Origin: Naegleria gruberi
Taxonomy: Eukaryota
Strand: one strand, 5' to 3'
Assembly: GCA_000004985.1 (NCBI GenBank)
Contig: GG738845.1
DNA: 64,000 nt
Under the pieces are notes generated by a model. That model saw only the letters and a list, made by a program, of their open reading frames with translations, was not told where the DNA came from and did not search any database. Positions within the stretch are counted from its first letter, which is position 1. The number at the start of each line of letters is the position of its first letter. The translations under genes and the position numbers were made by a program. Of the stretch, positions 5,894-48,609 are shown one piece after another.

Positions 5894-7066
5894 ATGAGTA
5901 AGGAACAATCACCAACAATGCAAAAAGGACCAACCTTTGATGATATTTTGCAAATGCTCAAAAAATCCTTCATAGAGGAAACAAAAGAGCTTAGAGAGGA
6001 ATTAATGGATTGGAAAGTAAAATGCAAAGAATTGGAAAAGCAAAACAATATTCTTGATTATAGGATCAAAGGATCAAGCAATAGAATATCTGAATTGGAA
6101 AAAAAGCTAGAGGAAACAGAAGAATTGAAAAATTCTACAATGAGAAAATATTATGATTTGAAAAGAGACTATGATGACTTGAACCAATTCAAAACATCAA
6201 TAACACACATGGTTAGCCCAACAAAAGACAAGACAAAGCAATCTATCAATCCAGCTACAAATTTAACTTCTAAATTTTCTTCTCCAGAAGTGAGAAAAAC
6301 AAGTTCATTTGTGTTCAACTCAGAAGATGACCTTTGCACCCCAAGTAATCACTCCAATATAAGTAATATTTCTGTAAGACATGACTCATATGACCCTATC
6401 CTGACAAGTGTGCACCAAAGAAATAAGTATGGATCTGATTCTCCAATAATATTTAACAGAACACCTCAAAAGTCTAGGGATCAAACAGTAAGAAGTAGAA
6501 GTGCAACACTCTCAAATAGAAAGAGAACCTCAATTCTAAAAGATCCATCATCATTTACTTCCAGAGAAAAGAATGTAAAGTTTTCACCAAGTACAAAAAC
6601 TGCTGAGCTAGGAGAAAAAGAAGTGCCAGTGGATACACCATTTTCTGCTCCTCCTACACCACATTCATCGTTTGGAGTTCAATACACTAAGAAGCCAGAT
6701 TTGAAAGAGGAATCCCATGACAAGGTAGTAGCTGATAGATTTGTATCCACACCATCAAGGCGAACCTATTCAAGTCAAGAATCGGCAAATAACTACACAA
6801 AGAATTCTAATCGATTAGCAAGTAGTATTGCAAGTAGCGACTTGGAAGAGATTAGTGCTGATGTAACAGCTCAAGAGTTGTATCTGAGAGTGAAGAAGGC
6901 TCTCTCACCAGATGAGTTTAAGAACTTTAGCACAAATATCAGAAAATTGAACATGGGTGAACAATCCATCACCACAACCCTAGTTAATCTGCGAGAAATT
7001 ATTGGAGAAGAACGTCAGAACTTGTACTCACATCTGAAGAGAGTAATATCTGCTGGAGAAATGTAG
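5894..7066 (+). CDS. Hypothetical protein with an N-terminal coiled coil and a Ser/Thr-rich middle.
   Basis: A single 390-aa ORF with coiled-coil heptads at residues 20-100. I did not recognise any domain. Confidence 0.45.
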   Translation: MSKEQSPTMQKGPTFDDILQMLKKSFIEETKELREELMDWKVKCKELEKQNNILDYRIKGSSNRISELEKKLEETEELKNSTMRKYYDLKRDYDDLNQFKTSITHMVSPTKDKTKQSINPATNLTSKFSSPEVRKTSSFVFNSEDDLCTPSNHSNISNISVRHDSYDPILTSVHQRNKYGSDSPIIFNRTPQKSRDQTVRSRSATLSNRKRTSILKDPSSFTSREKNVKFSPSTKTAELGEKEVPVDTPFSAPPTPHSSFGVQYTKKPDLKEESHDKVVADRFVSTPSRRTYSSQESANNYTKNSNRLASSIASSDLEEISADVTAQELYLRVKKALSPDEFKNFSTNIRKLNMGEQSITTTLVNLREIIGEERQNLYSHLKRVISAGEM

Positions 7067-10014: not shown

Positions 10015-12073
10015 TTATTGATTACTGATTTGTTTACGTTTGAGAGTGACAATTTGTTCCCTTACATTATTATCTTTATCTCGGTGCTTTTCAAATTCGA
10101 TATCTTGATTAAGTTTCTCCTTTTCTTTTGGTGACAGATTGGTATTGTCGAGTCTGGATTGTAAATCTTGATTTACAAGTTGAGAGGTTGATTCAATATA
10201 ACCAAAAATAAGATCCAATTTGGAACTGGTTGGAAGCTCATAACCTAAATACACATCACGTGATTCTTCAAATTTTCTCTTGGCTTTTTCATTCATATTC
10301 ATTTTCAAGTAGGTTTTACCCAATTCCAAGCATAAATCACCAACATCTGGATGGTATTGAGTTGGAAAAGATGCATCATAGGCTTTATAAGAAGCGACAT
10401 AGTGTTTTTCAGCTTCTTCATAATTTTCTTGATTGAAAAAGAATTTACCCTTTAAAGATTCAATAATCACAATTAGTAACATTACTTACAATATTCATCA
10501 ATGCAGTTGCAACAACGTGATTATTTCCTTCCTTAATTGACTTGGCAATAATGTAAGCCTTTTGGTAATAAGCAAGGGCTTCTTCTGGTAAGTTCTTTTG
10601 TTCTGAGATTTTACCCAAACTATTCAAAATGAAGGCAATATCGAATGTAGTATTTGAATCTTGAGATCCAGCAGATTTCATCTTATTGTGGATATCTAAT
10701 GAACGTTTAAGCATATCCTCCGCATTGGAGAAATCCTTCTTATTCAAATATAGTGTTCCTAGTGTGAGATAACATTTACCAGTTTCCAACAGTTTACGAA
10801 TTTGTTCACCATGAGGTAGATCCATTTCAGAGTCGGTCATGGAAAAGACTTCGAGTGCCCTCTTTGTAAATTCTTCAGAGTGGTCAAAGTCCCCCTTTGA
10901 TGCATACAAGACCCCCAAAGAGTATAACAAGCTACCAATCTTTGGATGTTTGCTGCCCAAAACTTTTTCAATAAAAGTGATGGCATTTTGATATAACACT
11001 TCAGCTTTTTCAGACATTTCCAGATATAGCGCACAATTTGCCATATTCAAATAAACATTTCCAATAATTTCAAATGCTTCTTGAGAAATGACATTGTCTG
11101 ATACCTTGTCAAAATGGTGTTGATATTGGACAGCTCTACTGAAAGTAACGTAGGCATCTTCATATTCTTTCAAACGATATTGAACAGTTCCCAAATTATC
11201 TAATGATTTTAACAAATCAATTGGCACAAATTCTAATTCTCTAATATTTGATTTTGGCATAGTTGATTTGTATTTGAGATATTCAGCAGACTCTTTGATT
11301 GGAGCATCTTTGATTTCCATAAATGGCTTTGAAATATTTTTTGCTTTTTCATAATCATTTCTTATTTCTCGTTCTTCTTTTTGGTAGATTGGATTTAATG
11401 TTTGTTCGAATAACTTGACAGACTTTTGGAATGTTTTTTTGGCATCTGTTAAATTACCTTGTTTCATTGCAATCTCCCCCAAATAATTCCATTCTGATGA
11501 CAGGTCAAATGTTAACTCTTTTGATTTTTTTTCCAAAAATGATGTAGTCTTGATTCTGATACATTCAGATTGATATTGATAAGCTGGTTTTAACTTGTCA
11601 ACAGCTACATTTATGACACTCAATTTATGGTATGCATTACCAAGTGCAAGAGTAGATTTACCATATAATTTACTACTTAATTCAATATATTTAAGTGTCA
11701 TATTTTCTGCTTTTTCATATCTATAAATTTTGCAATATAGATCGCTAACTTCTTCATAAATTTCGCAAAGTTTCTTTTCTTCCATATTACTTTCGTTATA
11801 TTGTAATAACTCTTCGATTTCATAAATACGTTCTTCAATTTGTTTAACATTTTTTGGAGCATACTTTTCTGCTTCTAAAACAATTGCTGTGATAGGATCG
11901 ATATTTAATTTTGACAATTTTGTGGAAAAAAATTTGCAATTATTATTACTATTACTTTTGAGCGAGAATTGATAGATAGAAGCAAGATTAAACTTTACGG
12001 AAGACTTGGTTTGTTGTACCAAGGTTCTGCGCAAGAGTGGTGATGTGGTGATGTTTTTGAGCAGATGACTCAT
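10015..12073 (-). CDS. Tetratricopeptide (TPR) repeat protein. Two exons joined by a 40-nt intron at 10450..10489.
   Basis: The ORFs 10460..12073 and 10015..10482 join through ...MNI|GTAAGTAATGTTACTAATTG...CTTTAAAG|GKFFFNQENYEEAEKHYVASY. It contains multiple TPR-like helices (AxxxYxxA, LGxxY patterns). Confidence 0.7.
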
Positions 12074-12112
12074 TTTTTCTTTTGATTCAAAATTAAAATA
12101 TTTTTAAATTTA

Positions 12113-15100
12113 TTATTGATTGGAGTGTGAAAGGACAACTTGTTCAAAGAAAGACTTAACTCCCGCAATATTTTCCTCCAAACTCTTAACTTTAGCATTA
12201 CATTCATCTTGAATTTCCTTCTCTCTGATTTTCATCTTTTCCTTTTCTTTTTCAAGTTGAATTACTTTTTGCTTCTCTTTGTTCAATGTTATACGAAGAT
12301 TTTGACTTTCTGCTTGACTCTTCTCCAAATCATTTCCCAAATCCTCATATGATTTAATCTTTAGTTGTGCAATGTGGAGGGAATTTTGCAGAGATTTAAT
12401 TTGTTCCTCATAATTTGAATTGTCATTTTGCTTTGTCAATTTGTTTTGAGATATTAGGAGGTCGTTATGTGTCTTCAATTTGATAAGTTCATTTGAAAAT
12501 TTAACGAATTCAGATTCAAATCTCTTCATCTCTGATTCATATTTTGAAACTAGGAAGGTGTTTTGTTTTTCTAATTGGAGAACGTCCAGACTTTTTTCTT
12601 CTACTTGTCTGGTCAAATCTACTATTAAATCATTGTACTTTTTGTTTTGTTCGTTTTGCTCATCCTGGGTCTTTTTGACTGATTCATTACTTGAGTGCAC
12701 GTATTGTAAGTTGGATTGGAGTTGGTCATGCAACGCCTTTATGGTTTCTTCATTGGACTCTATTCTCTGGAGCAAGGATAGTTTCATTGATTCCTTGTCG
12801 TTTTGAACTGAAACAAGTTGATATCTGGCTTGTGCTAAATTACTTTCTAGAGAGATCTTTTCCTCCCTTATCTTTTGTATTTGATTTGCACAACCAGTCA
12901 ATTCACAAACTAGACCTTCTATTTCTTTTTCCATATCAGTAATCTTTGATTCAAGTCTCTCGTTGTGAAGTCTCAGCTCTTCTTTAAACGAGGAGTCAAT
13001 CACTGGTAATTTTGTGCCTTTTCTTCTTAATTCCAACTCAGTTTCCAAAGTTGAAATGATTGAGTCTTTTTCTTGTAGTTTGATTTGATATACTCGTTTG
13101 TCATTTTCTATTTTCTCTTCCTGCTTTTGAGTGATTGATTCTATTAAAACAATATGAGATTTGATGTCTTGCAATTTGTTGGTCCACATTTCTTCAACTC
13201 TTTTAGCTTCTGATTTCAAATAATCTCTTTCCTTTTGCAGTATTAAGAGTTGATTATTTAGAGATATGTTTTCTTCTGTTTGTTTTTTTAATTGTTGAGA
13301 CAGGGATTCGTGTGAATTAGACGAAGAACCTATTCTTTTTTTGGTGTCTTCTAAATCTTTGTTCAGGTGCTGAACTACCTTTGTGTAGTTTTTAATATCA
13401 TCCTCGAATTTTTGTCGTTCTCTGTTCTTTTCTTCGACAAGTTTTGCATTCGAACATTTTTGATCTTCAAGTTGAGAGAGTATGTTATGGTTTCTCTCTG
13501 CAAGATCTCTCATTTCTGCTCTTAAGGAAGACTCGATTTTTTCCATGTAAGCTAGATGGGATTTCTCTTTGCTAAGTTCTCTTGAGGCCCTCAATAATTC
13601 TGTTTTGGCACTTTCTGATTCTTCGCCGAGGTGAATTAATTGTTTTTCACTTGTAATTTTCACCCTGTGTAGATCCTCTCTTAATTGTTTTTCTGCTTGC
13701 TGCCTTTCTTCTATTTCAATATCCTTTTTTCTAACAATTTCTTTCAATGACTCTATCTTCTGCATAAACAATAAATTTTTTTCGTTCAGTTGCTCAATCT
13801 CTTTTTGCATTACTTGCTTCAATGATTCAGAGTCTACTGAAATCAACTCCATTTCACTACAAATTTCATTAAAATACTTTTGAATTTCTTCAAAGTTTGA
13901 ACTTATGGACTTGAAATCATCGTTAATTTTAAGGGAAGAAACAATCTTTTCTTTTAGAACTTGTTTTACAAGTTTTTCTTGTTTCTCAAATTTTTCATTT
14001 GAGTTTTTAAGATTGGATATTTTCTTGGTATACGATTGGTATCTATCATCATATTTGGATTTCAATTCCAATATTTCGTTCTCATATCTTTGTTTCAAGG
14101 AGGTAATGTCAGATTCGTAGTTGCTCTTCTCCAAAGAATTAGTCTTCTCCCGAGTATCAAGTAAACTCTGCAAGTTTTCATTAGCTACCTTTACAATTTT
14201 ATATTCCTCCTCCAGAATTGAATGTTTTTTTGAAATATTTTCTTTTCCCTCTTCAAGATCTGTTAAGCTCTTTTCATGTTCGCGAATGGTATGTTGTAAA
14301 TTTTTAAAAAGTTCCTCATAAACTGTCTGGAGAGACTCTTTTTGAGAAGTAAGATTAATAATATCTTCTTTAAGGTGGGTGCTTGTTAATTGTTCCTTCT
14401 TTATATCACTTTCCAAAGCAATATTCACCATTTCATTTCGAATTATCTTCCCCTCTAATTCACTAATTATTTTCGTTGATTCTTTTAATTGTTCCTGAAG
14501 AGATTGTAGCTCTAATTTTTCAAATTCAAATTCTTGATTGAGTTGGAGATTTTTCAATTTCAAATCTTCTATTGTTTTGTACAAGGTTTCAAGTTGAATT
14601 TGATAGGCTCTGGACATTTTTTCCATTCTTTCTTTTATGAAACTGGTTTCTTCTATTTTAATATCTTTAGAATCATTTTCTAATTGTTTCTTCAAGGCTT
14701 CATTTTCAATAGTTTGATCTTCCAACAATTTCTTAAGAGTATATTCATTTTCTCTTGATTCTTTACTCATCTTTTGAATGTAGTTCAAATGTTCCTCATT
14801 TGCTTTTCAATGTTAGGCAAGGGCTCAAACAACTATTAAACTTACTCTTATCCATTTTTTCTTTCCACATCCTGCCAAAATCAATATTTTGAGTTTCAGA
14901 CGAATATTTTTGAGATTTCAATATTTCTTCATACTCTCTAACTCTCATTAAAAGTATTGCATTTTCTTGTTCTAATTTTTTTTTATCTTTCTCTAACTCT
15001 GACTGCTTGTTGTGGTGTTGTAAAAGTAGATTGGCCTCGTTTTTTCTAAAGTTATCCTCTGTTTTTTTGTTAGATTCCATAACGACCATATTCATTTTTT

Positions 15101-16319
15101 CAATTGTTTCTTGAAGAGATTTAATCTCTGTCTTCATTCTTTCAACTTGGATCTGATTTTTAGACTCATCCTGTAAAGCAGGAACAAGTAATTGTTGGAT
15201 TCTTATGTTTTCTGATTTTTCTTTTTCTAGATCTTCTTTTAACTTGTTAATTGTGGACTCGTATTTGTCTTTTTCCTCTTTCCCAGTTTGGTCCTCCTTT
15301 TCGTCACTTGAGCTTTTACTTTCAGAAAAAAGAAGAGCCTTGCGGAGTTCTTCATTTCTACTTAGCACTACCGATAGCTGGTGAAGGAGGTCTTCATTCT
15401 GCATAACTAAACTTTTCATTCTTTTTTGTGCTAAATCCTTTTCAGACAAATCCTCACCATACTGAATATGTTCAGAGGCATTTGATGAGCTGTCATCAAA
15501 ATCAGTTTGACAAAATGCAGTTAAATAGGTTGGCGAGTTTGAAATCAGCCTGGAGGGTGATCCTTCAGAGAAGGAGAGTAGGGATGGGCTTTCAAATGAA
15601 TTGTTTTCCTCTTCATTTCGATTTTCCTTCTTTGTTTGCCTTGTTTGATTTGAAATTGCCAGTGTTTTTAAAGGTAGTGAAAGAGGTGAAATAAGAGCCG
15701 TGTTTCCTAAGTCAGATTTTTGAGGCTCCAAATCTTGACCTGAGAGATGGGCTTTGATTGGTGTTGTATTGTCGAAATCCAAAACCCTGAAAGTATTACT
15801 TCTCTCGCTTACTGAACTGCCGATATATGGTGAATCATTATTCTTAACAGAGCTGTTTGGTGTTGTCATATTAGTATAACTTGTTGAGGGTGACCCTATT
15901 TCAGAAGAATTAGTGGAAAATGGATTTTGAAAATTTTGTGATGGAGATTCTGTAGCAAGCTCTTCAGTAGTTGGATTATTGGGGGTTGTTTCGGGATCAT
16001 TTGACTTTTGTGTTCTCTCAATACCTCGAGACTGTACAATCCTGTTCCAATCATCGATTATACTATCGAAATAGTTGTTTGTTTGATTATTAGCACCGTT
16101 TGTTTTATCTTTCTTAATTATCATTGTATCCTCCATAGTTGTTATTGTTCTATTCAAAACATTGGTGTATTGGCTGAGAAGTGTGTTATAGAAGGATGAT
16201 GACGATCCCGATTCTTGATAATGTCTCGTGGTTGTATTGTTTAATGTATTCTCCTCTCTTGTTTTTAGGATGTCTCCCTCATTTGCCGTTGGCCCTATTG
16301 CCGAGCTAGTTGGAATCAT
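12113..16319 (-). CDS. Large coiled-coil protein of about 1400 aa. A Ser/Thr/Asn-rich N-terminus is followed by more than 1000 aa of heptad coiled coil. Two exons joined by a 43-nt intron at 14803..14845.
   Basis: ORF 14796..16319 ends at a TGA stop a few codons after a GTAAGT donor: MDK|S-GTAAGTTTAATAG...CCTAACATTGAAAAG|. Splicing A+CA joins it in frame to NEEHLNYIQKMSKESRENEY of ORF 12113..14788. That ORF otherwise begins at TTG. The content is myosin-tail or golgin-like, rich in E, K, L and Q. Confidence 0.65.
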
Positions 16320-16403: not shown

Positions 16404-19400
16404 ATGACCCAAACAAAAAGAAGAATATTTCGAAAAGATAGGTCTGCTTCTCCTTCCACAACTTCATCAGGCGCGGAAACGAATCCAACACTTCAGCAAC
16501 CAGAATTAACAACAACAGAAGCCAAAACGCCAATCAGAATGAAGCATGTTACCACTGATCAAGCTGATTTGTTTGACTTTTCAAAATGGGATTCCGAAAT
16601 ATCACCAATGTATGTTGTTAACAAAATATTCAATAGTCATCACAATTATTCCAGACAAACATATTTATTATCTGTCCTTTCAAAGCAATTAGAAATTACA
16701 ATCAAACATAACATTCTTTCTCATTTCTTTTTTAATTTGCTTAACCAACAAAACAAGATATCAACACAAAAGTTCTTAGAATTAATCCAATCCATATCTT
16801 CACAACATCCCGATCAAAAGAATACTTTATTAATATCTCTTGCACTTTCCATAGAGTTACAATCAAATAGATTGCCAGAAGAACACAATGATTACGTATA
16901 TCTGGTAAATATCACAAAGTCTCTTTTAGAAAACTCTGTTTTTCAAATTGGTTTACTTAAACAATTGATGAATTTTGATTTTTTAGGAGCTTGTGGAATC
17001 TCGACTAGGAATATGTTTTTAAAAAGCAAAACTCGAGAATTATATACGCAGGACCGTTTTAATCTTTTACACGAAGAAAATGAAGGATTCTCAAAACTAA
17101 TTTCAATCATCATAGATCCAAATAATTTGTCAATTCAAAAGTTGGAACAAATAACCAATGAAATTATTCAAATCATAGGATTTTTCAACCTTGAACCAAA
17201 TAGGGTACTTGATATTCTATTGGATGCTTACGAAAATAATTTAGACAGTGATGTTTTACTGAATCTTGTTAGGTCCCTTTTTAATAATCAACATTTGAAG
17301 CATGTTATTGGATTTAAACTTTCAAGCTATCATAACAAGGTTACTCCAACAAGTTTGATTGTAATGATTGTTAAATTGATGCAAAAAGAACTTTTTATTT
17401 TTCAAGATATTATGTATTATTTAGGTCCACATTCTGTTGATGATTTGGAGCATTTTCATCATGAATACGAAACAGAATTGAAAAGAAGTAGAGAATACAC
17501 AATTACAGTTGATGGAGCAGTTGAAAAAATCGAACCCAGATTTGAAAAATCGTATCCAGAGTTTCAAAAGGATCAAAAATTTGGATTATTAATCCAACTT
17601 TTGAACTTTGATATGATAGCTGAAGCTATCAGCATGTTAGACATCCTATCAAAATATGACCCTCATTGGAATTATGATATTTCCATTGCTTGCTGTAAAT
17701 CTATTGAAAAAATTTCTACTCCTCTATATGAAAAATATACTGTATTGAACAACTATATTTCAATAACCAATGATGACAAATCAACTATTGAAAATTACCT
17801 CTTTCCTCTTATTTGCCATACCAAATATGAACTGTATAGAGAAATCAAATCCCTTACAAAGCTCATACGTCTACTTAAATTATATATGAAACAACCAAAC
17901 GACCATCATCAAAAACTAGTGCAAGTTTTAGCATCAATTCTCTCATCACTATGCTTTGTAGGAATGAACACTTCTATAGTTTCAGAATTTTGGAGTATTT
18001 TGGCTCTATTACCCTATCAAACCAGATATGAAATTTATGGCTTTACAAGGCAACACGGTTATGAGAAACAACCCAAAATGCTCGCTCAACAAAATTGGGT
18101 GTCGAGAGGTATTAGACATATATTTAATAGAATTTCCTTTGCAAATGTGAGAACAAAAGCAAGAGAGATACTTCCATATACTGTATCAAATCCAATTATC
18201 GTATGTGAAGAGTATATTAGAAAATGTGAAACCTACGATAATCAAATACCCCTTTGTGTAGATGTATCTCAATTCTCTCCAGAAATTTCCCATGACATTA
18301 TGCAATACTGTTTACTTAATAGATTACTTTCCAATCAAAGCAGTAACATTAAGGAAGATGGTATTTCTATAGCAACTTGGCTCTCTAATTTAGCTAGTTT
18401 ATATGGGCTGTTTTTCAAAACATACCCATTTGTGGATATGAAACCTGTTCTTAACTATTTAACCCAAAGATTGAAGGAGGGACTTTGGGAACATTTGGTA
18501 ATTTTGACTGAAATTATCAAAAATACCTCAACCTTGGAATATTCTGAAGAGATTAATCAACATCAACTAGAGGCACAAGCAGGAGGAAAAGTTTTACACA
18601 GTCTAGCAGGAACTTTTTCTCCAAACTCTAAAAATACAGGCGTAGAATCAATGAAAAAACTTAAAGATACAATACTGTCAAGTGGAAGTGGTGTATCACT
18701 GGTTTTGTTGCTTGCAAAGCTCAGTAATTATGGAATTCATATCCATGAAGATTATCAAGAATGGAAGCATGTTGCAGATTCAAAGGATATGTGCCATGTA
18801 GCCTACCTTTTATTATTGAAATTCCTCATTTCAGAAATCAAGTTTGTCTTTGAAGAAGAGGCTTTGGGTAATGAACTTAACTCTTCCCTACTTATTCCAA
18901 GTGTGGATACCTTGAAAGCATATGATTTGTCAACACCATTTATTTTTTCAATTGTAAGACTTACACGCTCTTCCATCCCACCAAATATATTACAAAGCCT
19001 ATTACCATTAGACATAAGCAATAATGTCACTTCTCAATTTTATAACTTTTTCTGGATGAAAGACCTTTCAGATATTTATGTACCAACTTCCCTTTACAAC
19101 AGTACCATGAATGAATATGGCAATCATAGATCCTCCTTAGTAAGAGAAAAGGACGAGCAAAATCAAAAATATGAAGCATCTATGAAAGAATTCAAGGAAA
19201 TTTGTCACAAATTCTTTATGGCTGAATCTGAATTTGTGGACATGACTACTATTCTCCAACATTGCTTTCTTCCTAGAGCTTTGTTTTCTGCAGCTGACTC
19301 TTTATACTGTGCAAAACTTGTCCATCTATTACATACTAGTGAAACTCCAAAGTTTTCGTTCAATCTCTTTTTACAATATTTATTGGAATATGTGCCTGGC

Positions 19401-21455
19401 TTACTGTTGACCTGTACAGAAAATGAAGCTAAAAGATTGAGTAGACTTGTTCAATTTTTACTCCCAACAGCAAATAGATGGTATGAAAGCCAAAATGAAT
19501 TCAATCGGGAATGTAAAAACAAGCCTGGTTCGTTTGTATCTGTAAAGAAATATCCTCAACTATCTAGCTCAACAGACGATATATACACCAAACTAGATTT
19601 TGAAAATTATCAAAAATTCCACTTTTTAATAATGGAAAATATGCTCAACAATTGCATTTTGCTACTCAAGAGTAATGATCATATCAAAATTCGAATTGCC
19701 ATGTTATTTCTATCTCCTCTTGTCAAGACAAACACTTTCCCGTTCTATTCCCGTCACTGTGATGCTCTTTTAGAGATATCAGATTCATTGAAAGAGCACC
19801 ACGTTGAAAATATCAAGGTTTTATCTAACACATATTTCCCATTGATAACCTCCATCAGAAAGAAGAGTGAAAATCCAAGCTTTATCAAACCCCTATTGAA
19901 ATTCTCTGTTAAGCCAACTAATATCAATATTCCCTCCAGAGATAATGAAATTCCAGCAAACTCAATAACTCCAAATACTGCTATTTCAGAAAGTGAACTT
20001 ACCTCTCTCACTCCCCAAAAACAAGAAGACACTCTCGGTGACTTTTCTGATTCTGGTAGTACCTCACTTTCTCCACCAACAACCCTTTCCACAAATATTG
20101 AAGCAACAATTGTTGTTCGAGGAGAAGATTCGACTATCCCTCCTATTGAGAATACTCCTCTTGAAACACCTACAGTGGAAGATGTTAAAATGTCGGAGGC
20201 CTCAAATGAAGCAATTCAACCTTATGATACAAGTTTACCTGAATCTAATGTAGAGGCTGCTTCACAAGATGCTCCTGTGGAGGATGTTCCTAAAGCAGAA
20301 ACTGTGGTTACAATTTCTGTGGAAGAAACAAAGAATACCACACCAACCATTACAGAGGAAAAACCCCAAGAGGAAGCTGTTGATATTGAGAAATCTCTAA
20401 CAGAAGAACCAAAATCTCCAGAATACGTCCCAATTGAACAACAATTAGAAAATGAGTACAAATCTCAAGTACAAGAATCTGATAACATTTTAGATAGTTC
20501 CAATTCTGAAAATACCCAATCTGATCAAAATATGATGAACTCCAAATTGGTACAGCTCCTCAAACAGAAACAACAAACAAAATCAGAGGATAAATCTGAG
20601 GAAGTTAAGGACTATGTTAAAGACATTCAACAATTACTCATTCTTCCAATTAACAATCCACTCCAAGTAATCAAGCAATCACAAAGAACAACTGAAAACA
20701 CAGCTCCATCCTCTGAAAGAAAACAAGGCAATGACTCGAAGGAGATTCGTTCTCTACAATCATCCAGAAGAATTGATGATAATCTAAAACGTGACACACA
20801 CCCCTCTTCACAAGAAAGAAGACTATCATCAAATGCTTCTTCAACTAGTAGTAAGGAATCATCCCAAAAAAAAGAATCAGAAACCAAGACAAACAAATCT
20901 AATGAAGATAAGTCAGACATTAGATATGAAAGTTCAAGAAGTAGGAACGATTCAAGAGAGACTCAAAAAAATGAAAATAGCTCACAAAAGAATGACAATT
21001 CTCGTTTGAATAGAAGTGAAGGCAGAAACCTTGACAATAGAAACGACAGAAGTGATAATAGTAGAAACGATAGAAGTGATAATAGAAACTTTGACAACCG
21101 TGATGCTTCCAGATACAGCGACAGATATAACGATAGAAGAAGTTCTTCACAAAGCAGTTCCAATAGGGATAATCGAAATAATGATTTTAGAAGAAATGAT
21201 TCTTCTTCAAACAGATCTGATAAGGGAACATCCGGCAATGATAGACGAGATACAAGAGGAGCTGGTGACTCGTACCAATCTGATAAGAGAAATAGTTTGG
21301 GTGGAAATAGTACATCCTCTGATAATAACAGAAGAGGATCCTCTTCTGGCGAATTGAAAAGACAATACAGTAATGAATCATCCTCAAGTAGCTCCAGCAA
21401 CAATAGACAATCAGAACACGAATCAGAAACAAAGAAAAAACGATTCCACAGATAA
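16404..21455 (+). CDS. THOC2: THO complex subunit 2 (THOC2/Tho2) homologue, 1683 aa, apparently intronless.
   Basis: [15 protein letters not shown]...[20 protein letters not shown] matches human THOC2 FNLLREENEGYAKLI...[44 protein letters not shown] matches [23 protein letters not shown]. The C-terminal 350 aa is a low-complexity R/D/S/N-rich tail with RNDRSDNS repeats, like the basic tail of THOC2. Confidence 0.85.
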   Translation: [1683 protein letters not shown]

Positions 21456-22013: not shown

Positions 22014-23021
22014 TTAAGTACCAGGTTCCTTCTTTAAATCTGAATCCTTTTGATAGGCAGTTTCTCTGATGTGGTCGTTATCACTTGACATTACTCCGGC
22101 TTGCTTCATTATGAAAATTTCTGCAGCATTATCCTCCCCCAATGCCTGTTTGGATTGTTTTGCTTTAGCTCTATATCTCAAATCGATTTGAATTGATTCA
22201 CTAAGAGGGAATATCCATGCTTCTATATGATTAATTTCAAAATCAGAGTCACTCGACAATTGGGGACTGTATGAATAAGTAAGTAAATCTCCAACAGTCC
22301 TCCCAAACCTCCAGTCCTCTTCAATACAAAGAGAAAAGCATCCCATTTTTCCTCCAAATGCAAGGCCATTGTATGGATTATACTTATTTCCATAATTAAA
22401 GTATACATAATTTTCATTTCTATTACTGGACCTGTAAATTTGCACATTCGTTTCCTGATTTTCATTTGTTTCAATTTTGAACAATAAACAGTTGTTATTT
22501 CCATAAAAATTAGGTTTCCTATCCAGAGAAACACTTGTAAAAGCTCCAAATATATTTCCTTCAATATCTTCAATTATGATTATCATTGGTCCGTGATGCA
22601 TTACTATTTCACCAAAAGTTGCTATCGAAGCTCCATTTCTCCAATTTGCATAGAGTAATGTCCATTCATTATGTTGCTTTTGTTCTTGAGGAAGTGCAAG
22701 TCTTAATTGTTGAATAATTGATTTTCCCTTCTCTCCGATTAGTATTTTTGATTCTCCAACGAGATTGGGAGCATTATAGGAAGTTGTTGTATTGGAGGAG
22801 AGACTTGAAGTTGAAGAAGATGATGTTATTTGAAAATTATTCTGATCATTTGATGGGATATTCAATGTTGTCGCATCGGAAGTTGTACAACTGCTGTTAA
22901 AATTGGTATTTACTTGTTGATTTTCAGAAGGGGTAAGTGACTGATCTTGTTTCGTTGTGACTGGGGAGTGTTTGTTTTGTTCTCTTTGTGGCAGCGAACT
23001 GGTCGTATTATTGTTTCCCAT
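22014..23021 (-). CDS. TLDc-domain protein (MEAK7/OXR1-like) with an N-terminal MG myristoylation-type start.
   Basis: It starts MGNNNTTSS, with Gly at position 2. The C-terminal 200 aa has the TLDc pattern: WTLLYANWRNGASIATF...GPMIIIIEDIEGNIFGAFTSVSL...NCLLFKIE...YFNYGNKYNPYNGLAFGG...EINHIEAW. Confidence 0.75.
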   Translation of the reverse strand: MGNNNTTSSLPQREQNKHSPVTTKQDQSLTPSENQQVNTNFNSSCTTSDATTLNIPSNDQNNFQITSSSSTSSLSSNTTTSYNAPNLVGESKILIGEKGKSIIQQLRLALPQEQKQHNEWTLLYANWRNGASIATFGEIVMHHGPMIIIIEDIEGNIFGAFTSVSLDRKPNFYGNNNCLLFKIETNENQETNVQIYRSSNRNENYVYFNYGNKYNPYNGLAFGGKMGCFSLCIEEDWRFGRTVGDLLTYSYSPQLSSDSDFEINHIEAWIFPLSESIQIDLRYRAKAKQSKQALGEDNAAEIFIMKQAGVMSSDNDHIRETAYQKDSDLKKEPGT

Positions 23022-23229: not shown

Positions 23230-25947
23230 ATGAGTTCAAACGGGACTGATTCATCATCAAATAATTCCCAAACTCCTTCCAAGAGTACCTCCCAGAAGGT
23301 ACTTCCAACTGTACCTTCTCCTTCCTCAGCTGGAAGTAGATCAAGAACAACAATTAGACCTTTACCAAGTAGCAGCGGAATGGGATCAAAAGGTTCTAAA
23401 GGCAGTTTGCCGCTTCTTCCAACACAAGATAATTTAGGAGCAAATACTCATCATCTTGTTAGTGTTAACAAGACACCACTCGATTATGATCAATTTTCCC
23501 AAGTCATGACCACAAGCCCAAGGTTTGTTTTATTATTAACAATGTGATTTAACTTGTTCAGTTTACTCTCTGCTCTTTATACTCAGAGATTGCTTTCAAC
23601 TTCAGAGTTGGACGAAATGGCCTTTGCACTCTATCAATTATCTTCATCTTTATCAACATCTTGCTTCATGAATAAGATTCTAATTGGAATTGAATTTGAA
23701 AGAAGTTCTTCCGATACCGGCAATGGAATGGTAATAATGAGAGGAAATACTGTTGCAACCAAAGTAATGGACAATGTTGTTAAAGCAGAAGCTGTAGATT
23801 ATTTGAAAAATATTCTTATTGAACCAATGAAGAAGATCATTCTCGATGAAGTTTTAGATTTGGAAATTGATCCAACAAAAGTAATTACAAGAATTGAATC
23901 TGAAATTGATCTCTCTTCTAAAGATATTGATCAACAACAGCCTGAAGTTGCAGAAAAAGCTGTTATTCAAAACTTAGAAAATTTATTGACTTATTGCCGA
24001 TACTTTTTGGATAGAATGTTATCACAAGAGGCTCTTGAATCTATGCCTTTCAATATGAGATATATTTGTAAAATTATTAACGAAATGTGTCGCGACAAGT
24101 ACAGAATGGAAAATTCTGAAACTATAATTGCAAGTTTTGTTTTCTTGAGATTATTCAATCCAACTATTGTCTATCCTGAATCGAGAGATATTTTCCCACC
24201 TGAAGTCAAGATTCATTCAAAACAAAGAAGAAATTTGGTTTTAATTTCTAAAGTGATTCAACAAATTGCCAATGGGTTTGAATTTGGAGCCAAAGAATCA
24301 TTTATGATTCCACTCAATCCTCTTATTAATGAATACATACAAAAGGCTAAAAAATTCTTGATCGAATGTTCAAACTTGGATAGTGACAAGATATTGGACG
24401 AATTGGAAAAGAGCGTGCCAGACAAAGTTAAAAACAAAATCATTTCTTCTGATGAAAAATTACTTCAACATGCTATGAACATTCAAATGTTAGTTAAAAC
24501 TCATGAAAAGTCTCTCACAGAAAAAACAAATACTTCTAAAGATTTGATTGGAGTATTAAATAGACTTCCTAAAATTGAAGAAGCTATCAAATCTGAATCA
24601 TCCATCCTCTCAAGAAATGATTCCATTAGTAGTAACACAACTACATCAACAACTAATGAGAAGAAATATCAAGATTCTGAAAAGTATTTGGAAATGCTGG
24701 AAAAAGCTAAACAAGAAGATGTTAGAGATTTAGAGGCTATGAATGTAATTTCATGCAGAACATGTGATACTGAGGGTAGACCTGTTATTATCTTTTCTGA
24801 AGAAAAAATCAAGAAGGAAGATTTGGAAAGAACATTGCTCTATATGATTTTAAAACTTGATAAGTTTGTGGAAAGAGATTATGTAATGATTTGGTGTGTC
24901 AGTAACTCTACCTCTCAATCTCGTCCTGGATTTTCATGGATGTTAAACGTTTACAAAACCATTACTAGAAAATATAAGAAGAATTTAAAGTCGCTTTATA
25001 TTGTTCATCCAACTATGATGATCAAGGTTATCATGAAATGCTTTTCACCATTTGTTAGTGAAAAGTTTTGGAAGAAACTTCATCTTGCTGATACTGTACA
25101 AGATATATTCAAAGATATCCCAGAACATATACTACCACTTCCTCCAACAGTCATTGCTTATGATTTGATGCAAAATAATATCAAAAGCAATCAACCTTCC
25201 CTTTTCTCTACATCTTTGGAAGAGTTAATTAAATCAAGAAAGGATTGTGCAAACTCCTTGGTACCATCACCAATTAAGAAATGTATGGACTTCTTGAAAG
25301 AGCATCATGCCAACACTAAAGGAATTTTCAGAATTAGTGGTAATCAAGCCACTGTCAACCAGCTCAAGATTTTGATTAACCATGGCTCTAATGTTGATTT
25401 GCACCATGTTGATTGCCATGTTTTGGCCAGTCTTATCAAACTTTTCTTCCGTGAACTTCCTGATCCACTTTTTATGTTCTCTATTTATGATGAATTAATT
25501 TCAGCAGTTAAAGGTATGTTTCAAGAATTATTTTATTTACGAATTATCTAAGAAAATGGAAACTCTGTTCCAGATGTAATTGAGACGGTCAAAAAAATTG
25601 TTCCTAAAATGCCACAATGCCATTTTGAGCTTGCTAAAGAGCTTTTTGCATTGCTCAACTACGTACAATCACTTAGTGAAGAAAATATGATGAATGCTCA
25701 TAATTTGGCAATTGTTTTGGGTCCAAATATCATTAGATCAAATAGTCCAAATCCATTATTAGCATTACAGGATAATGGTCCACTCACTTATATAACTGAA
25801 ATAATGATTGGCCACCACGAACAAATTTTCCAATCTGGAAATGCTACAAACGCAACAATTCAACGTGGATCAAGAAGACCTCAAGCTCTTATGGAAGGTG
25901 ATTTGGAAAAGCTCAAATCTCTTAATTTTGATGATAGTGATGAATAG
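23230..25947 (+). CDS. Multidomain GTPase-activating protein: RasGAP domain, CRAL-TRIO (Sec14) domain and RhoGAP domain. Three exons: 23230..23522, 23562..25513 and 25574..25947.
   Basis: The RasGAP arginine-finger region is MVIMRGNTVATKVM and the signature is FVFLRLFNPTIVYPE. The Sec14-like region is RPVIIFSEEKIKKEDLERTLLYMILKLDKF...LYIVHPTMMIKV. The RhoGAP region is GIFRISGNQATVNQLK...LASLIKLFFRELPDPLF...MNAHNLAIVLGPNII. It spans a GTATGT intron. The introns are 39 and 60 nt and the frames were checked. Confidence 0.8.
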
Positions 25948-26064: not shown

Positions 26065-27586
26065 ATGTCAGAAGAAGAAATTGCTAAAGAAATCAAACAA
26101 ATGACCCTAAACGCTGGCGACAGCTGGGCTGATACTGTAGAAGCTCCTGTAACAACAAGTATGTGATCAAGTCATCAACAAGATTTTCTAAATTATTTTA
26201 TTGTAATTTCGTTCCATGATGGTTTTATTCTTCTTTGTGATGATGATGGTTTTATTAAAACAAACAAACAATATCAACAACAACGGATATGGTGATTGAA
26301 CAATAATAATAGCTTCACTTTTGGATGAAGAATTGGATAAACAACAACATGATCCAACAAATCCTCTCTACAGTCAACAAATTAAATTCGAGAATATGAA
26401 ATTAAAGCCTGAACTTTTGAAAGGAATTTACTCTATGCACTTTAAAGAACCATCTAGTATTCAAGCAAAATCACTTCCTATTATTTTGGAAGAAGATGTT
26501 AACTTGATTGCCCAATCACAAAGTGGTACTGGTAAGACTGCTTGCTTTGGTCTTGCCATGCTTCAGGCTGTTGACGAAAGTGTTAACTCAACCCAAGCAA
26601 TTTGTATTTGTCCTGCTCTTGAATTGGCCACCCAAATTTATTCTGTTGTCAAAGGATTGGGTCAACATACAGGAATTAAAATCTATGCCGCTCTCAAAGG
26701 ACAAGAAATTCCAAGAAATTTGACTGATCATATTGTGATTGGTACACCTGGTACAGTTAATGAAATGATTAGACGTAGATCTATTAATACCAAGACTGTC
26801 AAAATTTTGGCTGTTGATGAAGCAGACCAAATGTTGGAAGAAGGAAATAGTCAATTACGTGATCAAACTATTTTAATCAAGAAGGGTTTGCCTGAAAAAT
26901 GTAGAGTATTACTCTTCTCTGCTACATTTAAGGAAGAAGATGATGACAAGGAAGGTGCTGAAAAAGAAAAGAAAGTATTGGATTTTGCTGAAAAGGTTGT
27001 ACCACAACCTCTGAAGACAATCTTGATACCTAAGGAAAAGCTTACATTGAAGCACATGAAACAATTTGTTGTTAAATGTGTAGATGAAACTCAAAAGATT
27101 CAAGTTATTAAGGATATCTACGAAACACTCAAAGTTGGACAAAGTATTATTTTTGTCAACAGTAAGAATTATGCTGAAAAGTTGGCCAATGTTCTCCAAG
27201 AAAACAAATTTACTGTCAGTGTCACTCATGGTGGTTTAGATCCAGAAGTCAGAAAGAAGGTCATGTCAGAATTTGTTGCTGGTACAGCCAAGGTTTTGAT
27301 TACAACAAACGTTCTTGCTCGTGGTGTAGATATTGCCACAGTTACACACGTAATTAACTTTGATCTTCCAGTTGTCTATGATGAAAAAACACCTGGATCA
27401 GACCGTGAACCAGATTATGCCACTTATTTGCATCGTGTTGGTAGAACTGCTAGGTTTGGTAAGAAGGGTTATGCCATTAATATTTGTAGAGATAGAGAAT
27501 ACCGTATCATTGAAGCTTTCAGAAAGAATTTACAAGCTGAAATCAAAGATGTACCACCAGAAGATCTAGATGAACATATTAAATAA
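26065..27586 (+). CDS. DBP5: DEAD-box RNA helicase Dbp5/DDX19-like (mRNA export). Two exons: 26065..26158 and 26313..27586.
   Basis: NPLYSQQIKFENMKLKPELLKGIYSMHFKEPSSIQAKSLPIIL matches the Dbp5 N-terminal pattern NPLYS..F..L.LKPeLL.G.Y.MgF..PS.IQ. Motif I is AQSQSGTGKT. It also has VDEADQM, SAT and HRVGRTARFG. Exon 1 is MSEEEIAKEIKQMTLNAGDSWADTVEAPVTT. The GTATGT intron is 154 nt. Confidence 0.85.
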
Positions 27587-45073: not shown

Positions 45074-46699
45074 ATAATTTTGATAATTTTTACTGTGTTT
45101 TAGTTCTTATCAACAAATTAATATCATTATTTAAGGACGTTAAAAATAATTTCAAATTACTCTTTCCACCCTGAATAGAGTTATTATTTGTTAGCAAAAT
45201 ACTAATGTGGTATTTAAGGATCCAAATCCCACGCGACTCCTTTGCAGTGACCAAGAAAAACAAATAAATTTTTGAGGTCATCATTTTTCATGTTTTCACA
45301 ATAAATATTAATATACATTTATTGTAAGCTTAAATCATTTTCTTTGACACATCATTGAATGCATCTGACTTTTTGTTATTGTTAAAGCTTTTTCTTGCAG
45401 TTAGAAAAGCAATTTCAAAAACATCCATAACATTTTCAATATATAATTTGCTGTTCTCATCATTAACATTTGCCACTTCTAATTCATGATAACTCTTGCT
45501 TCTTAATTATAGTGGTTTTTTGAACAATGCCTAATGATGTTGGATACTAAATATGAAAAAAACAAGATGATAATGTTGTGAACATTTTAATAACTCTTCA
45601 GAGGTTGTTTTATGCTGTAACGAAATGATCATAATGATTTATGAATCATGTGCTTAGAACCTATAACAAAAATATCTAAATCAACAGTTCTATACTTTGA
45701 CATGTAGGTGAAATCATTTTCATGCCCTTTTGGATGTCTAGTAGGGTTGTTAAATAATTTTGCTATTGAGGGTGGTGATTGAAGAGCCCTAGTAATTGTA
45801 ATAGCTTTCATCATCAAATGGATCAATTTTTGAAAAAGATGTTACTCATCCTCTTAAAACAAAAACATTAAATCAAAGTTGTCCATATGGACAAGGGTAA
45901 CAATATTAGTACTATTCATCATTGTGTTTGTCTTATGTTGTTCTAATTTGAATAACCAATCGAAATGCTTATATGTAGTTGTAGTCATTTTTTATCAAAT
46001 ATGAAAATGTAAATTTTACTAAAACCTACCCAATATCACATTGTGTTAATAGGTAATTTGTAAAAAAGTTGGAACAATGATGTCTAATGAATATTGCATG
46101 TAGAAATATTTGTTTGTTGTTTTTATGGTCTTGGTTGTCTTGTTATTACTTTCACCCTCTTTCTGAAATATATTACGCGTGTAACTATGAGATATACATC
46201 ATTACAAAAACACAATACATAATCCCATTGTGCTTGTTGTATGTTTGAATCATCGAACAATTTAGAGAAAAGGAAATTGAAATTTTCTAATATACTAACA
46301 GAAAAATAATCGCATCTCTCTAAGTTACACGTGTAGATTAATTGGTAGGAATAATAATAATTCAAAAAACTTAAAAAACCATTAAAAACAAATCTGCTTT
46401 GGATAATTGGTTATCCAAATGAAAATATCATTTTACCACATTATCTGTCTCCAAATTGGATATGATTAAATGAAATCCAATAAAATAATATTAACTTATT
46501 ATATCTGAAATTTCTATTGAAATCTTATTCTGTGTTAGAGTGGGAATTCTTTAGCCGCTTGTGGTAATTGAGTATAATGAGTAATTTTATTCCTTTCATT
46601 TACTCTTTCTTGGTAGTACCGTTTGGTGGTTTAGTGTTTCTCAATCTTAATTCGAGTTTGAATATAATTTTTGTATATTTTCACAATTTATTTTGTTGT

Positions 46700-46717
46700 T
46701 ATATATATATATATATG
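46700..46717. repeat. (TA)n dinucleotide microsatellite.
   Basis: tatatatatatatatat lies inside the 45.1-48.6 kb ORF-free block. A second imperfect TA/CA-rich stretch lies at 47140-47170. Confidence 0.8.
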
Positions 46718-47039
46718 TGAACAAAAATTATATTTATCTATGTTAGAAAAATCATTTCCCTATTATTCTTCATCATACTCCTCATCATGCAGTTAAAATT
46801 TAATTTGATTGCAATAATCTAAATGATTAAAAGTACTTTCTTTTTATTAGAAATCAAGTTACCAGCATTAATTGTCTTAAAAATCAATGTTGTTCAACAA
46901 CTTCTATCATATTTATTGGAATCTTGATGATCCAATTTTATTCCATACCATGTTTACCATTTAATATCGAGTAGTAAAAATATGTAAATTAAAAAATGGA
47001 AAAAATGTTTTTTTGAAAAAAATTTCGATAAAAACTAGA

Positions 47040-47067
47040 AATTTATTAGTATTTCAATGAAAAATAC
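47040..47067 (+). repeat. Copy 1 of a perfect 28-nt direct repeat, aatttattagtatttcaatgaaaaatac.
   Basis: The identical 28-mer recurs at 48306..48333 in the same orientation, 1266 nt downstream. Both copies are preceded by tagaa within 10 nt. Confidence 0.7.
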
Positions 47068-48305
47068 GAATTTTCATACATGCGTTGGTGGGATATGTTT
47101 GTCATATTAGATATTTAATAAAAATAAAATAAAAATTTTCGCATGCATATATATATATTTATGTATATATACATCCGAAAAAATTTTTGTTGAAAGTTGG
47201 TTTATAAGATGGTGGTTAAATTGGTTTATCTGAAAAATCATTTAATGTGATGTTAGATATAAAGATAATGAAATTAATTGAAAATTAAGAAGCAAAAATA
47301 AATTTTCAAAAATTTTATCGATTTGAAATTTAGAAAAGCTTAACAAAGTAATATAAAATACAAAGACCATTAATTTTTAAAAATCTTCTAAAGTTGGTAT
47401 TATCATTATGAAGATTATTGATTGGAAGTAATAATCTTTATGGTAAATTCAAAGAAAATGAATTCAAAGAAAAAACAAACTTTGTAAAAATATTACAAAA
47501 ACACTGTTATTAGAAGTATTAAAAGTAGAGTTGTGATAGTTGTTTATTAAAACAAAGAAAAACTCTTACACCAAGAAATAGACAACTAGATTCATGGAGG
47601 TTGATGGAGTGATAAGTTTAAAAATATATTTAAACAAAATCCCAATAAAATTCGATATGTTTTGCCTGAGATGGGTGGGGTGGTAATGGTATTTCTGAAA
47701 ACTCTATTATTAACTAATTCTTATTTATTTAAAGCACAACTCATTTGATTAAAAAGGTCAACAAATGATCCTATCTTGTTCCTGCTGGTGTTTGAATTGA
47801 TTTTGTTGTGAGTAAATTGATTTTTTTTTACTACATTTCAGAATTACAGATATAGCTTTTCTTTACAATAATCCATCTTAAACCACTTTTTGGATGTTGG
47901 TGACTAAAAAATCAGCAAAAAGCGAAGTTTGGGATAGATATTAATATAGCATCATACTTATAATTATATTCTTGCTCTTCTGAAAATAAAAACTTACATT
48001 TCAAACCTCATCCACAGAAAATAAAATAATTTATCGTTCGTAATATTTGGGAGTGGTATATAAAGGTGTTTGTATTAATAATGAGCTTTTCGGCAATTAA
48101 GAACTCTGTGTAACACTTGATGATTTGGGTTTAGATTGAGTGTTGTTGAGGGGGAGTGTGTTTTAAATAGGCAAATAGGAATTTTGAGTTTTTGGGAGGG
48201 ATAGTTGTTTCAGTAGTTTGGATCAAGTTTACTAAAATAAAAAACAAAAAACTCGCAGAAACTAGAGTAATTTTAACATATCTTGTATTTCCTTTAGAAT
48301 CAAGT

Positions 48306-48333
48306 AATTTATTAGTATTTCAATGAAAAATAC
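48306..48333 (+). repeat. Copy 2 of the perfect 28-nt direct repeat, aatttattagtatttcaatgaaaaatac.
   Basis: See copy 1. It lies about 275 nt upstream of the Zn2Cys6 factor ATG at 48610. Confidence 0.7.
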
Positions 48334-48609
48334 AATTAAGCAAACGTAGGTATTGTGAGTTTCTAGAAACCGTTAATTTATTGGTTGGAATAAATCTTGG
48401 GAGAACAATTATTTCCATTGAAGTTTCAGTGTTTTCTTTAAAATATTGAATTTTTAATAGGTTTATTGAAGAAGATATTTTACAGGTTCGTGATTTTCAA
48501 ATTTCTGAGAAAACTAAAATGAGATAGAATATTTATTGGCACAGTAAGTGAAAGAAGTGTAGTATGTTTTAAAAAAAGAAACGAATTATTTAAAATCTGA
48601 AACAAAAAA

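Follow-up and report, generated by a model that had tools for sequence, protein, structure and literature searches.

Introduction

Can the Ras and Rho/Rac branches of the Ras superfamily be switched off by one and the same polypeptide? Normally the two pathways are coupled through separate proteins or complexes, as with p120RasGAP and p190RhoGAP or DLC1, and in amoebae the spatial coordination of Ras with Rac shapes pseudopods and feeding cups. The question is raised by a locus of Naegleria gruberi that lies in a 64,000-nucleotide stretch of contig GG738845.1 (assembly GCA_000004985.1), referred to here as the window. On its plus strand, from start codon to stop codon at 23230..25947, one three-exon nuclear gene encodes an 872-residue multidomain GTPase-activating protein (GAP) in which a RasGAP domain, a BCH-type Sec14 domain and a RhoGAP domain are joined in that order. 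The tri-domain combination is a conserved and probably old one that has remained uncharacterised. A single conserved polypeptide with apparently active GAPs for both branches, together with a BCH domain, would provide a compact natural system in which to address joint switch-off, and it is found in lineages (Heterolobosea, Jakobida, Euglenida and CRuMs) that lie outside model-organism surveys. In practical terms the stakes are modest, given that the parts are all well known and that the architecture is already visible, if unnamed, in public protein databases, where it appears as 'hypothetical protein' (N. lovaniensis) or, by automatic annotation, as 'Rho GTPase-activating protein 1' or 'gacY'.

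One gene, one reading frame, three domains

Splicing of the exons 23230-23522, 23562-25513 and 25574-25947 yields one open frame of 2619 nt. The first intron (23523..23561, plus strand; 39 nt, GTTTGT...CAG, phase 2) and the second (25514..25573, plus strand; 60 nt, GTATGT...CAG, phase 1, within the RhoGAP domain) each meet an in-frame stop when read through, at 23545-23547 and 25549-25551 respectively, and splicing is therefore needed for the full-length product. These three exons and two introns are the ones proposed by the initial annotation, which put the spliced product at 880 residues where the coding sequence specifies 872. It also held that the order of the domains depends on the two introns, and on this point it must be corrected. 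The gene region contains three open segments (23230-23547, 23554-25551 and 25609-25947), and the middle one, an open reading frame (ORF) of 665 codons, runs uninterrupted from before the RasGAP arginine finger through the whole Sec14/BCH domain and into the first half of the RhoGAP domain with its own arginine finger, so that the fusion of the domains is independent of the introns.

Both splice junctions are colinear with the orthologue of Naegleria lovaniensis (C9374_009801, hereafter P0001) and with a relative that is intron-free at those positions. At the first junction, TTSP-S-LLSAL lines up colinearly both with P0001 and with TTSPKLLGM of the environmental contig L001, where no intron intervenes, and removal of the second intron produces an unbroken match to the RhoGAP profile over positions 1-147 of 148. 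The start and the end of the gene likewise agree with P0001. The neighbours are a TLDc gene on one side (22014-23021, minus strand) and a DEAD-box helicase gene on the other (from about 26066, plus strand). Neighbouring genes in the window are separated by AT-rich spacers of ~120-210 bp, and because the spacers to these two genes are no longer than that, further exons have no room.

The three domains that had been predicted in one product are supported by every line of evidence applied. Pfam matches lie far above the curated cut-offs (24.5 bits for RhoGAP, 28.3 for RasGAP and 23 for CRAL_TRIO_2), the spliced product being recovered, all on the plus strand, as RasGAP PF00616 (residues 145-335, 23701-24273; E 2.8e-34, 119.3 bits), CRAL_TRIO_2 PF13716 (residues 503-632, 24775-25164; E 1.3e-26, 94 bits), CRAL_TRIO PF00650 (residues 496-623; E 4.5e-10, 40 bits) and RhoGAP PF00620 (residues 666-805, 25264-25743; E 1.4e-39, 135.8 bits). 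A sequence search of the PDB matched residues 475-837 to full-length human ARHGAP1/p50RhoGAP (53-434) in one alignment (E 2e-47), and residues 81-440 to the RasGAP-related domains (GRDs) of IQGAP2, IQGAP1, NF1, p120GAP and SynGAP. Structure prediction agrees. An AlphaFold2 model built from a 30-sequence alignment (mean predicted local distance difference test, pLDDT, 82.3; predicted template modelling score, pTM, 0.50) contains three confidently folded modules at residues 82-440, 464-640 and 645-837. When the whole model was compared with the PDB by Foldseek, neurofibromin GAP-SecPH structures came out on top (7mp5, 7r03 and 7pgq; E about 1e-13 to 1e-12), while the GRD on its own resembled that of p120GAP (8bos_G, TMt 0.82) and of NF1 (TMt 0.83), and the RhoGAP domain resembled p50RhoGAP-GTPase complexes (TMt 0.90-0.92, root-mean-square deviation 1.6-2.1 A). 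The motifs quoted at the outset, VIMRGNTVATK (155-165), FLRLFNP (292-298), GIFRISGN (685-692) and MNAHNLAIV (788-796), are all present, and the likening of the front half to neurofibromin and of the back half to p50RhoGAP is borne out by the top-ranking NF1 GAP-SecPH structures and by the colinearity of residues 475-837 with ARHGAP1.

Within this layout the GRD (residues 82-440, 23473..24588) is modelled as all-helical, with pLDDT mostly >90, and has intron 1 inside it. The Sec14-like module (BCH subclass; residues 464-640, 24658..25188), to which both CRAL_TRIO families match, is alpha/beta, and the RhoGAP domain (residues 645-837, 25201..25839), which contains intron 2, is helical. A Ser/Thr-rich flexible linker (residues 441-463, 24589..24657; pLDDT <50) joins the first two modules; it differs in length and sequence among orthologues, and is coding and partly conserved relative to P0001. 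At the N-terminus lies a Ser/Pro-rich region (residues 1-81, 23230..23472) that is predicted to be disordered (pLDDT <50) and whose short motifs RSRTTIRPLP and SLPxLPxQDNLGA are kept within Naegleria, by comparison with P0001. At the C-terminus an acidic tail (residues 838-872, with the stop codon 25840..25947; pLDDT <50 at 838-858 and 864-872) carries the motif RPQALxxGDLExLKxLNFD, again conserved in P0001. All these segments are on the plus strand.

Catalytic signatures of the two GAP domains

Judged from its residues, the RasGAP catalytic signature is intact and the GRD is apparently catalytic. The putative arginine finger, Arg158 (VIMRGNTVATK; codon AGA, 23740..23742, plus strand), aligns by HMMER with the finger of NF1 (LFRGNSLASK), that is, with the position of NF1 R1276 and p120GAP R789, where IQGAP2 has a Thr (IVTGNPTVIK), as does IQGAP1. 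Arg294 (codon AGA, 24148..24150, plus strand) belongs to an FLR motif, FVFLRLFNPTIVYP, that is aligned with MFLRFINPAIVSP of NF1 and stands where IQGAP has YYRYMNPAIVAP; at its core FVFLRLFNP pairs with MFLRFINP of NF1 and faces YYRYMNP of IQGAP. Lys328 (LISKVIQQIAN; codon 24250-24252, plus strand) pairs with the Lys of NF1 LMSKILQSIAN. We take R294 and K328 to be the positions of NF1 R1391 and K1423. In a family alignment of 14 sequences, which are 24-74% identical to the window protein, the finger is kept in 10/10 members that cover the site, Arg294 in 13/14 and Lys328 in all 14; across the family, R158 and (F/M/I)LR are retained.

By sequence the RasGAP half is closest to the class of NfaA, or 'miniature neurofibromin'. 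Its best-scoring relative outside the tri-domain family is a protein of Acytostelium subglobosum, XP_012750654 (hereafter P0137), at 119.6 bits, a score that matches or exceeds those of distant members of the protein's own family; against IQGAP2 the domain scores 77, against IQGAP1 70, and against NF1 and p120GAP about 57-58.

The RhoGAP catalytic signature, to judge by alignment, is likewise intact and of p50RhoGAP type. Its putative arginine finger, Arg688 (GIFRISGN; codon AGA, 25330..25332, plus strand), pairs with Arg282 of full-length ARHGAP1 (GIFRRSAN), which is R85 of the GAP fragment. Further, LIKLFFRELPDPL is aligned with ILKTFLRELPEPL of ARHGAP1 over the conserved Lys (K724 in the window protein), and NLAIVLGPN pairs with NLAVVFGPN. 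Both R688 and K724 are invariant in the 14/14 aligned family members, and the Asn of the NLA motif varies in the jakobid and Jenningsia members, in which the fingers are retained. The catalytic residues of the two GAP domains persist among family members of roughly 25-35% identity.

A Sec14 module of the BCH subclass

The module between the two GAP domains carries the sequence RKYKKNLKSLYIVHPT (residues 567-582, 24967-25014, plus strand), which agrees at each position with the BCH signature R(R/K)h(R/K)(R/K)NL(R/K)xhhhhHPs published by Gupta et al. for a subclass without CRAL_TRIO_N (PMC3313917). A CRAL_TRIO_N domain was not found in the window protein by Pfam, which returned CRAL_TRIO_2 and CRAL_TRIO only. 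Residues R567, K571 and N572 show no variation in 30 sequences or in the 14-sequence family alignment, and in the PDB sequence search the module aligns with the BCH domains of ARHGAP1 and of Schizosaccharomyces pombe. Given the fit to the entire signature, the module is of the BCH type seen in p50RhoGAP and not a classical lipid-transfer Sec14 domain. Taken together, the conserved fingers, FLR motif, lysines and BCH residues present the pattern that would be expected if two GAP domains, both active, were under purifying selection.

Conservation of the architecture across Discoba and CRuMs

Whether this architecture is peculiar to one genome was addressed by an exhaustive phmmer search of 1.84 billion representative sequences, by phmmer searches with each domain, by Pfam scans of full-length and selected candidates, and by look-ups of the sources. 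The best 150 matches include 17 proteins with all three domains. They come from the Heterolobosea (Pharyngomonas kirbyi and Percolomonas cosmopolitus), the Jakobida (Andalucia godoyi, auto-annotated 'gacY', and Stygiella incarcerata), the Euglenida (Jenningsia fusiforme) and the CRuMs (Rigifila ramosa and Diphylleia rotans, the latter P0164). On the sequence evidence, the tri-domain architecture is thus a conserved family in Discoba and CRuMs, not a peculiarity of this genome, and the suggestion that the same arrangement should be sought in other taxa has proved fruitful. The accompanying claim that the fusion is not a textbook one also stands: no description of a RasGAP-BCH-RhoGAP architecture was found in the literature searched (on RasGAP, RhoGAP, Sec14, Naegleria and domain architecture), in which 'gacY' gave only unrelated matches, although the family is present, unnamed, in sequence databases.

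An exact match to the 872-residue protein was not found in a collection of 5.8 billion proteins, and the nearest named orthologue is P0001, a 908-residue hypothetical protein that is 70% identical by BLASTP and 74% identical in the alignment, has the same four Pfam families, and can be aligned colinearly all the way from the initiator Met to the NFD motif near the C-terminus. A 105-residue ORF from ENA (P0058), encoded on a contig of 1.2 kb, shares 97% identity with exon 1, so that the species or a close strain has a marginal representation at most. The environmental contig L002 carries a relative with 70% identity. Contig L001 (53.8 kb) encodes a 43%-identical relative whose three domains lie in one frame apart from a single 60-nt intron (5997-6056), which splits the FLR motif (YIML|RLFNPT). 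There is no intron in L001 at either of the window's two positions, so that members of the family differ in where their introns lie. A profile search with the 14-sequence alignment against the same 5.8-billion-protein collection returned only the three known Naegleria-like matches and generic RhoGAPs, and so did not extend the taxonomic range.

Most of the tri-domain relatives are complete ORFs from transcriptome assemblies, in at least five species: RasGAP, CRAL_TRIO_2 and RhoGAP occur in single transcript-derived ORFs of Pharyngomonas, Stygiella, Rigifila, Diphylleia and Jenningsia, and the Andalucia protein comes from a gene model. Such ORFs are independent evidence that one mRNA encodes the three domains in those orthologues. 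Other combinations exist as well. Percolomonas P0097 has an N-terminal RhoGAP domain with a RasGAP domain downstream and no Sec14 domain, and Soliformovum irregulare P0151/P0181 has the order RasGAP-RhoGAP-WD40, one isoform possessing an SH2 domain as well. Since these proteins combine the two GAPs differently, their pairing must have arisen more than once.

A proposed dual GAP and its alternatives

With both arginine fingers present and conserved across the family, a dual-specificity Ras/Rho GAP can reasonably be inferred. In the mechanism that we favour, and consider probable as a whole, both GAP domains would be active, and one molecule would inactivate two GTPases at a shared patch of membrane, one of the Ras family and one of the Rho/Rac family. 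Through this joint inactivation, actin protrusions (pseudopods or feeding cups, for example) would be brought to an end. Regulation would centre on the BCH domain in the middle, which would keep the adjacent GAP domain or domains auto-inhibited and/or target the protein to the membrane by binding lipids or a prenylated GTPase. Mechanistically this would come as no surprise, because shuffling of GTPase-regulator domains is common and free in amoeboid protists.

Two analogies make the BCH domain a probable hub for regulation or targeting. BCH-type Sec14 domains are known above all as binders of GTPases and auto-inhibitors of GAPs, and that of p50RhoGAP both sequesters RhoA and keeps the GAP domain next to it auto-inhibited (PMC2938388; PMC11090974). 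In neurofibromin, as the titles of PDB entries describe it, the GRD and Sec14-PH rearrange between a closed/auto-inhibited conformation and an open one. A role in ending actin-driven protrusions would be plausible by analogy with several proteins of Dictyostelium: NfaA has been described as a regulator of pseudopodium formation (PMC4374526), IqgC and NF1 regulate macropinocytosis via Ras (PMC10806400; PMC4374526), and RGBARG, at the cups of macropinocytosis and phagocytosis, unites control of Ras and Rac within a single protein (PMC7416115).

Several points weigh against this mechanism. The dual-GAP function is a prediction from the gene sequence and the modelled structure, its GTPase substrates are putative, and at a pTM of 0.50 the model does not define how the domains are arranged with respect to one another. 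In human p50RhoGAP, Tyr188 in beta5 has been reported to mediate the BCH domain's auto-inhibitory effect on the GAP domain (PMC11090974). Its equivalent here is Leu606 (codon 25084-25086; KKLHLAD, against QKIFYVN in ARHGAP1), and with that residue replaced the analogy may not carry over exactly; the position is a Tyr in 56/84 BCH-RhoGAP sequences and a Leu throughout the Naegleria clade. Lipid binding or lipid regulation by the BCH domain is purely conjectural. Lastly, the best sequence match to the GRD among solved structures is IQGAP2 (E 1.5e-20), reaching over the extended helical part, and IQGAP GRDs bind Rac/Cdc42-type Rho GTPases and are without GAP activity (PMC8305917).

It is from this last point that the main alternative derives, namely that the protein is a Rho-only regulator in which a p50RhoGAP-like RhoGAP is supplemented by an extra Rho-binding module, the IQGAP-like GRD being a pseudo-RasGAP that engages Rac/Cdc42-type GTPases, or serves as a scaffold, without promoting GTP hydrolysis on Ras. 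IQGAP2 and IQGAP1 do outscore NF1 and p120GAP among PDB matches, and they span the whole GRD, its 'extra' helices included. However, the Thr and YYR typical of IQGAP are absent, and the residues found in their place are kept family-wide. IqgC of Dictyostelium, whose GRD keeps the finger and the FLR motif in the same way, is a genuine GAP for RasG (PMC8305917; PMC10806400), and the nearest relatives overall are in the NfaA class, NfaA being treated as a RasGAP (PMC4374526). This alternative is therefore considered unlikely. Outright membership of the IQGAP family was also entertained and was rejected: CH, IQ, WW and RasGAP_C domains are all missing by Pfam, and an Arg and FLR occupy the places of the Thr and YYR of IQGAP1/2.

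A second alternative, which appears improbable, retains the dual GAP and restricts its target to one branch of the Ras superfamily. The RasGAP domain would act on Rap or another Ras-like GTPase, or would serve mainly as a recruiting sensor of Ras-GTP, with the RhoGAP domain as the regulated output. RasGAP-fold domains do include dual Ras/Rap GAPs (PMC13634398), and SynGAP matches the GRD with E 2.5e-11; the variable Asn of the NLA motif in jakobids and Jenningsia, beside retained fingers, hints at different constraints on the two domains. Against this, sequence discriminates between no substrates, and in the Naegleria clade the two fingers are equally conserved. The weakest alternative, that adjacent RasGAP and BCH-RhoGAP genes were merged in the gene model or that an internal promoter yields only a p50RhoGAP-like product, draws on a gene model derived from genomic DNA, on RasGAP-free BCH-RhoGAP proteins in related lineages (for example P0023 of Heterolobosea sp. 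BB2) and on the disorder of the linker, but is rejected as extremely improbable because a single ORF spans the domains with no stop codon, spacer or frame change between them and because orthologues from 70% down to 25% identity, including the transcriptome ORFs, are colinear; real gene gaps in the window, moreover, are AT-rich spacers, whereas the stretch that links RasGAP to BCH is coding and shows partial conservation.

Comparison with known systems

The window protein combines, on the evidence of its sequence, an NfaA-type RasGAP-BCH front with a p50RhoGAP-type BCH-RhoGAP back, one BCH domain being shared between the two. The back half was compared with a set of BCH-RhoGAP proteins comprising ARHGAP1, ARHGAP8/BPGAP1, S. 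pombe C1565.02c and the Dictyostelium gacY type. In p50RhoGAP/ARHGAP1 (Cdc42GAP), to which the back half corresponds end to end, the BCH domain is also directly N-terminal to the RhoGAP domain, the BCH signature RKYKKN(L/I)K-LYIVHPT is of the same type, and the GIFR finger, the Lys and NLAxVxGPN are retained; the beta5 residue is the one clear departure noted, with Tyr188 there and Leu606 here. Proteins of the ARHGAP1 type have two domains, about 440-700 residues and no other catalytic domain, and to these the window protein adds a RasGAP of ~360 residues before the BCH domain.

The front half has its counterpart in the class that Bloomfield et al. defined as 'miniature neurofibromin' (MNF), from dictyostelids, Entamoeba, Thecamonas and Naegleria (PMC4374526), and the Sec14 domain of NfaA was reclassified as BCH by Gupta et al. 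(PMC3313917). With Dictyostelium NfaA (XP_645456) the window protein shares the order RasGAP, then Sec14. Architecture and taxon suggest that P0137 is the orthologue of NfaA; it consists of a RasGAP domain, a BCH-type Sec14 domain with the motif RKYKKNIDKMFIVHPS and two PH/TH1-like repeats. The MNF-like proteins end in such repeats, whereas the window protein has a helical RhoGAP domain after the BCH domain. In P0137 (residues 620-897) and in P0149 of Diphylleia (residues 540-770) there are two copies of a repeat of the form Y(R/H)VxKVNxxGKxQER...KxTxxS(L/I)LN(L/I)D, to which Pfam gives only a weak Myosin_TH1 match; probably the repeat is the PH-like module of 'miniature neurofibromin' in a divergent form.

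In neurofibromin (NF1) itself a GRD is again followed by a Sec14-type domain, and finger, FLR and Lys are aligned, although the similarity of the GRDs is modest (58 bits). NF1 runs to about 2800 residues against 872, and the window protein is without its HEAT/ARM arms and without the PH-like partner of the Sec14 domain, while possessing a RhoGAP domain that NF1 lacks. IQGAP proteins provide the best sequence match to its GRD among solved structures, and with IqgC it has in common the retention of catalytic residues (PMC8305917), but it is without the accessory domains listed above. Dictyostelium RGBARG (RCC1-RhoGEF-BAR-RasGAP; PMC7416115) likewise pairs a RasGAP with a Rho-family regulator, which in that case is a Rac guanine nucleotide exchange factor and thus of opposite sign on Rac. 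The RasGAP/RhoGAP proteins of Soliformovum and Percolomonas differ in having no Sec14/BCH domain and in their order or partners.

Evolutionary origin

The tri-domain family is relevant to the question of where the BCH domain and the ARHGAP1-type GAPs came from, and is a candidate link in BCH evolution. Gupta et al. postulated a 'missing link' between RasGAP-BCH proteins like NF1 and NfaA and BCH-RhoGAP proteins of the p50RhoGAP type (PMC3313917). The simplest derivation, in which NfaA would be the tri-domain protein minus its RhoGAP domain, was examined and is not supported: no RhoGAP remnant was detected at the C-termini of P0137 and P0149 by hmmsearch at maximum sensitivity (E >0.4), the tails being the two PH/TH1-like repeats. 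Further, Diphylleia has both forms, P0164 with three domains and P0149 with RasGAP-Sec14 and the repeats. Relative to the BCH domain of the window protein, the Sec14 domains in P0137 and P0149 lie far off (E 4e-8 and 5e-7), against E about 1e-38 to 1e-51 for the BCH domains of proteins that have BCH and RhoGAP only. For these three reasons the window protein is not simply NfaA with a domain gained or lost.

In a neighbour-joining tree of the BCH and RhoGAP region (84 sequences, computed without bootstrap or other support values) the Discoba tri-domain proteins form one clade, and the CRuMs members lie nearby and outside it. The tree is compatible with one old origin, although a single origin is unproven because the CRuMs members are not resolved. 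A bolder scheme, which we regard as doubtful, would make the RasGAP-BCH-RhoGAP protein an ancient 'missing link', possibly as old as the last eukaryotic common ancestor, from which the ARHGAP1 types of animals, fungi and amoebozoans were derived by loss of the RasGAP domain. Its BCH domain would then be a shared switch gating two GAPs on opposing faces, such that Ras and Rac are extinguished together at one membrane patch.

Genomic neighbourhood

Directly upstream of the GAP gene and divergent from it, the TLDc gene at 22014-23021 (minus strand) encodes 335 residues with a Pfam TLD match of E 3.9e-34. The start codons of the two genes are ~208 bp apart, and they may therefore share a bidirectional promoter region. 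Downstream, the DEAD-box helicase gene (26066-27586, plus strand; DEAD and Helicase_C by Pfam) appears to consist of a short first exon at 26066, an intron that begins with GTATGT near 26162 and a long ORF from 26321. Farther upstream, at 16404-21455 (plus strand), an intron-free ORF of 1683 residues encodes a homologue of THO complex subunit 2 (THOC2).

Two regions of the window stand out by composition. That at about 45100-48600 is AT-rich, with a GC content of 0.24 in 46001-48000 against about 0.33 elsewhere in the window; it holds no ORF >=100 residues and one short AT-rich tandem repeat, and could represent either an extended intergenic stretch or a gene rich in introns. In 12001-16000 and 1-2000 the AT skew is strongly negative (-0.25 to -0.31), presumably reflecting long coding regions on the minus strand.

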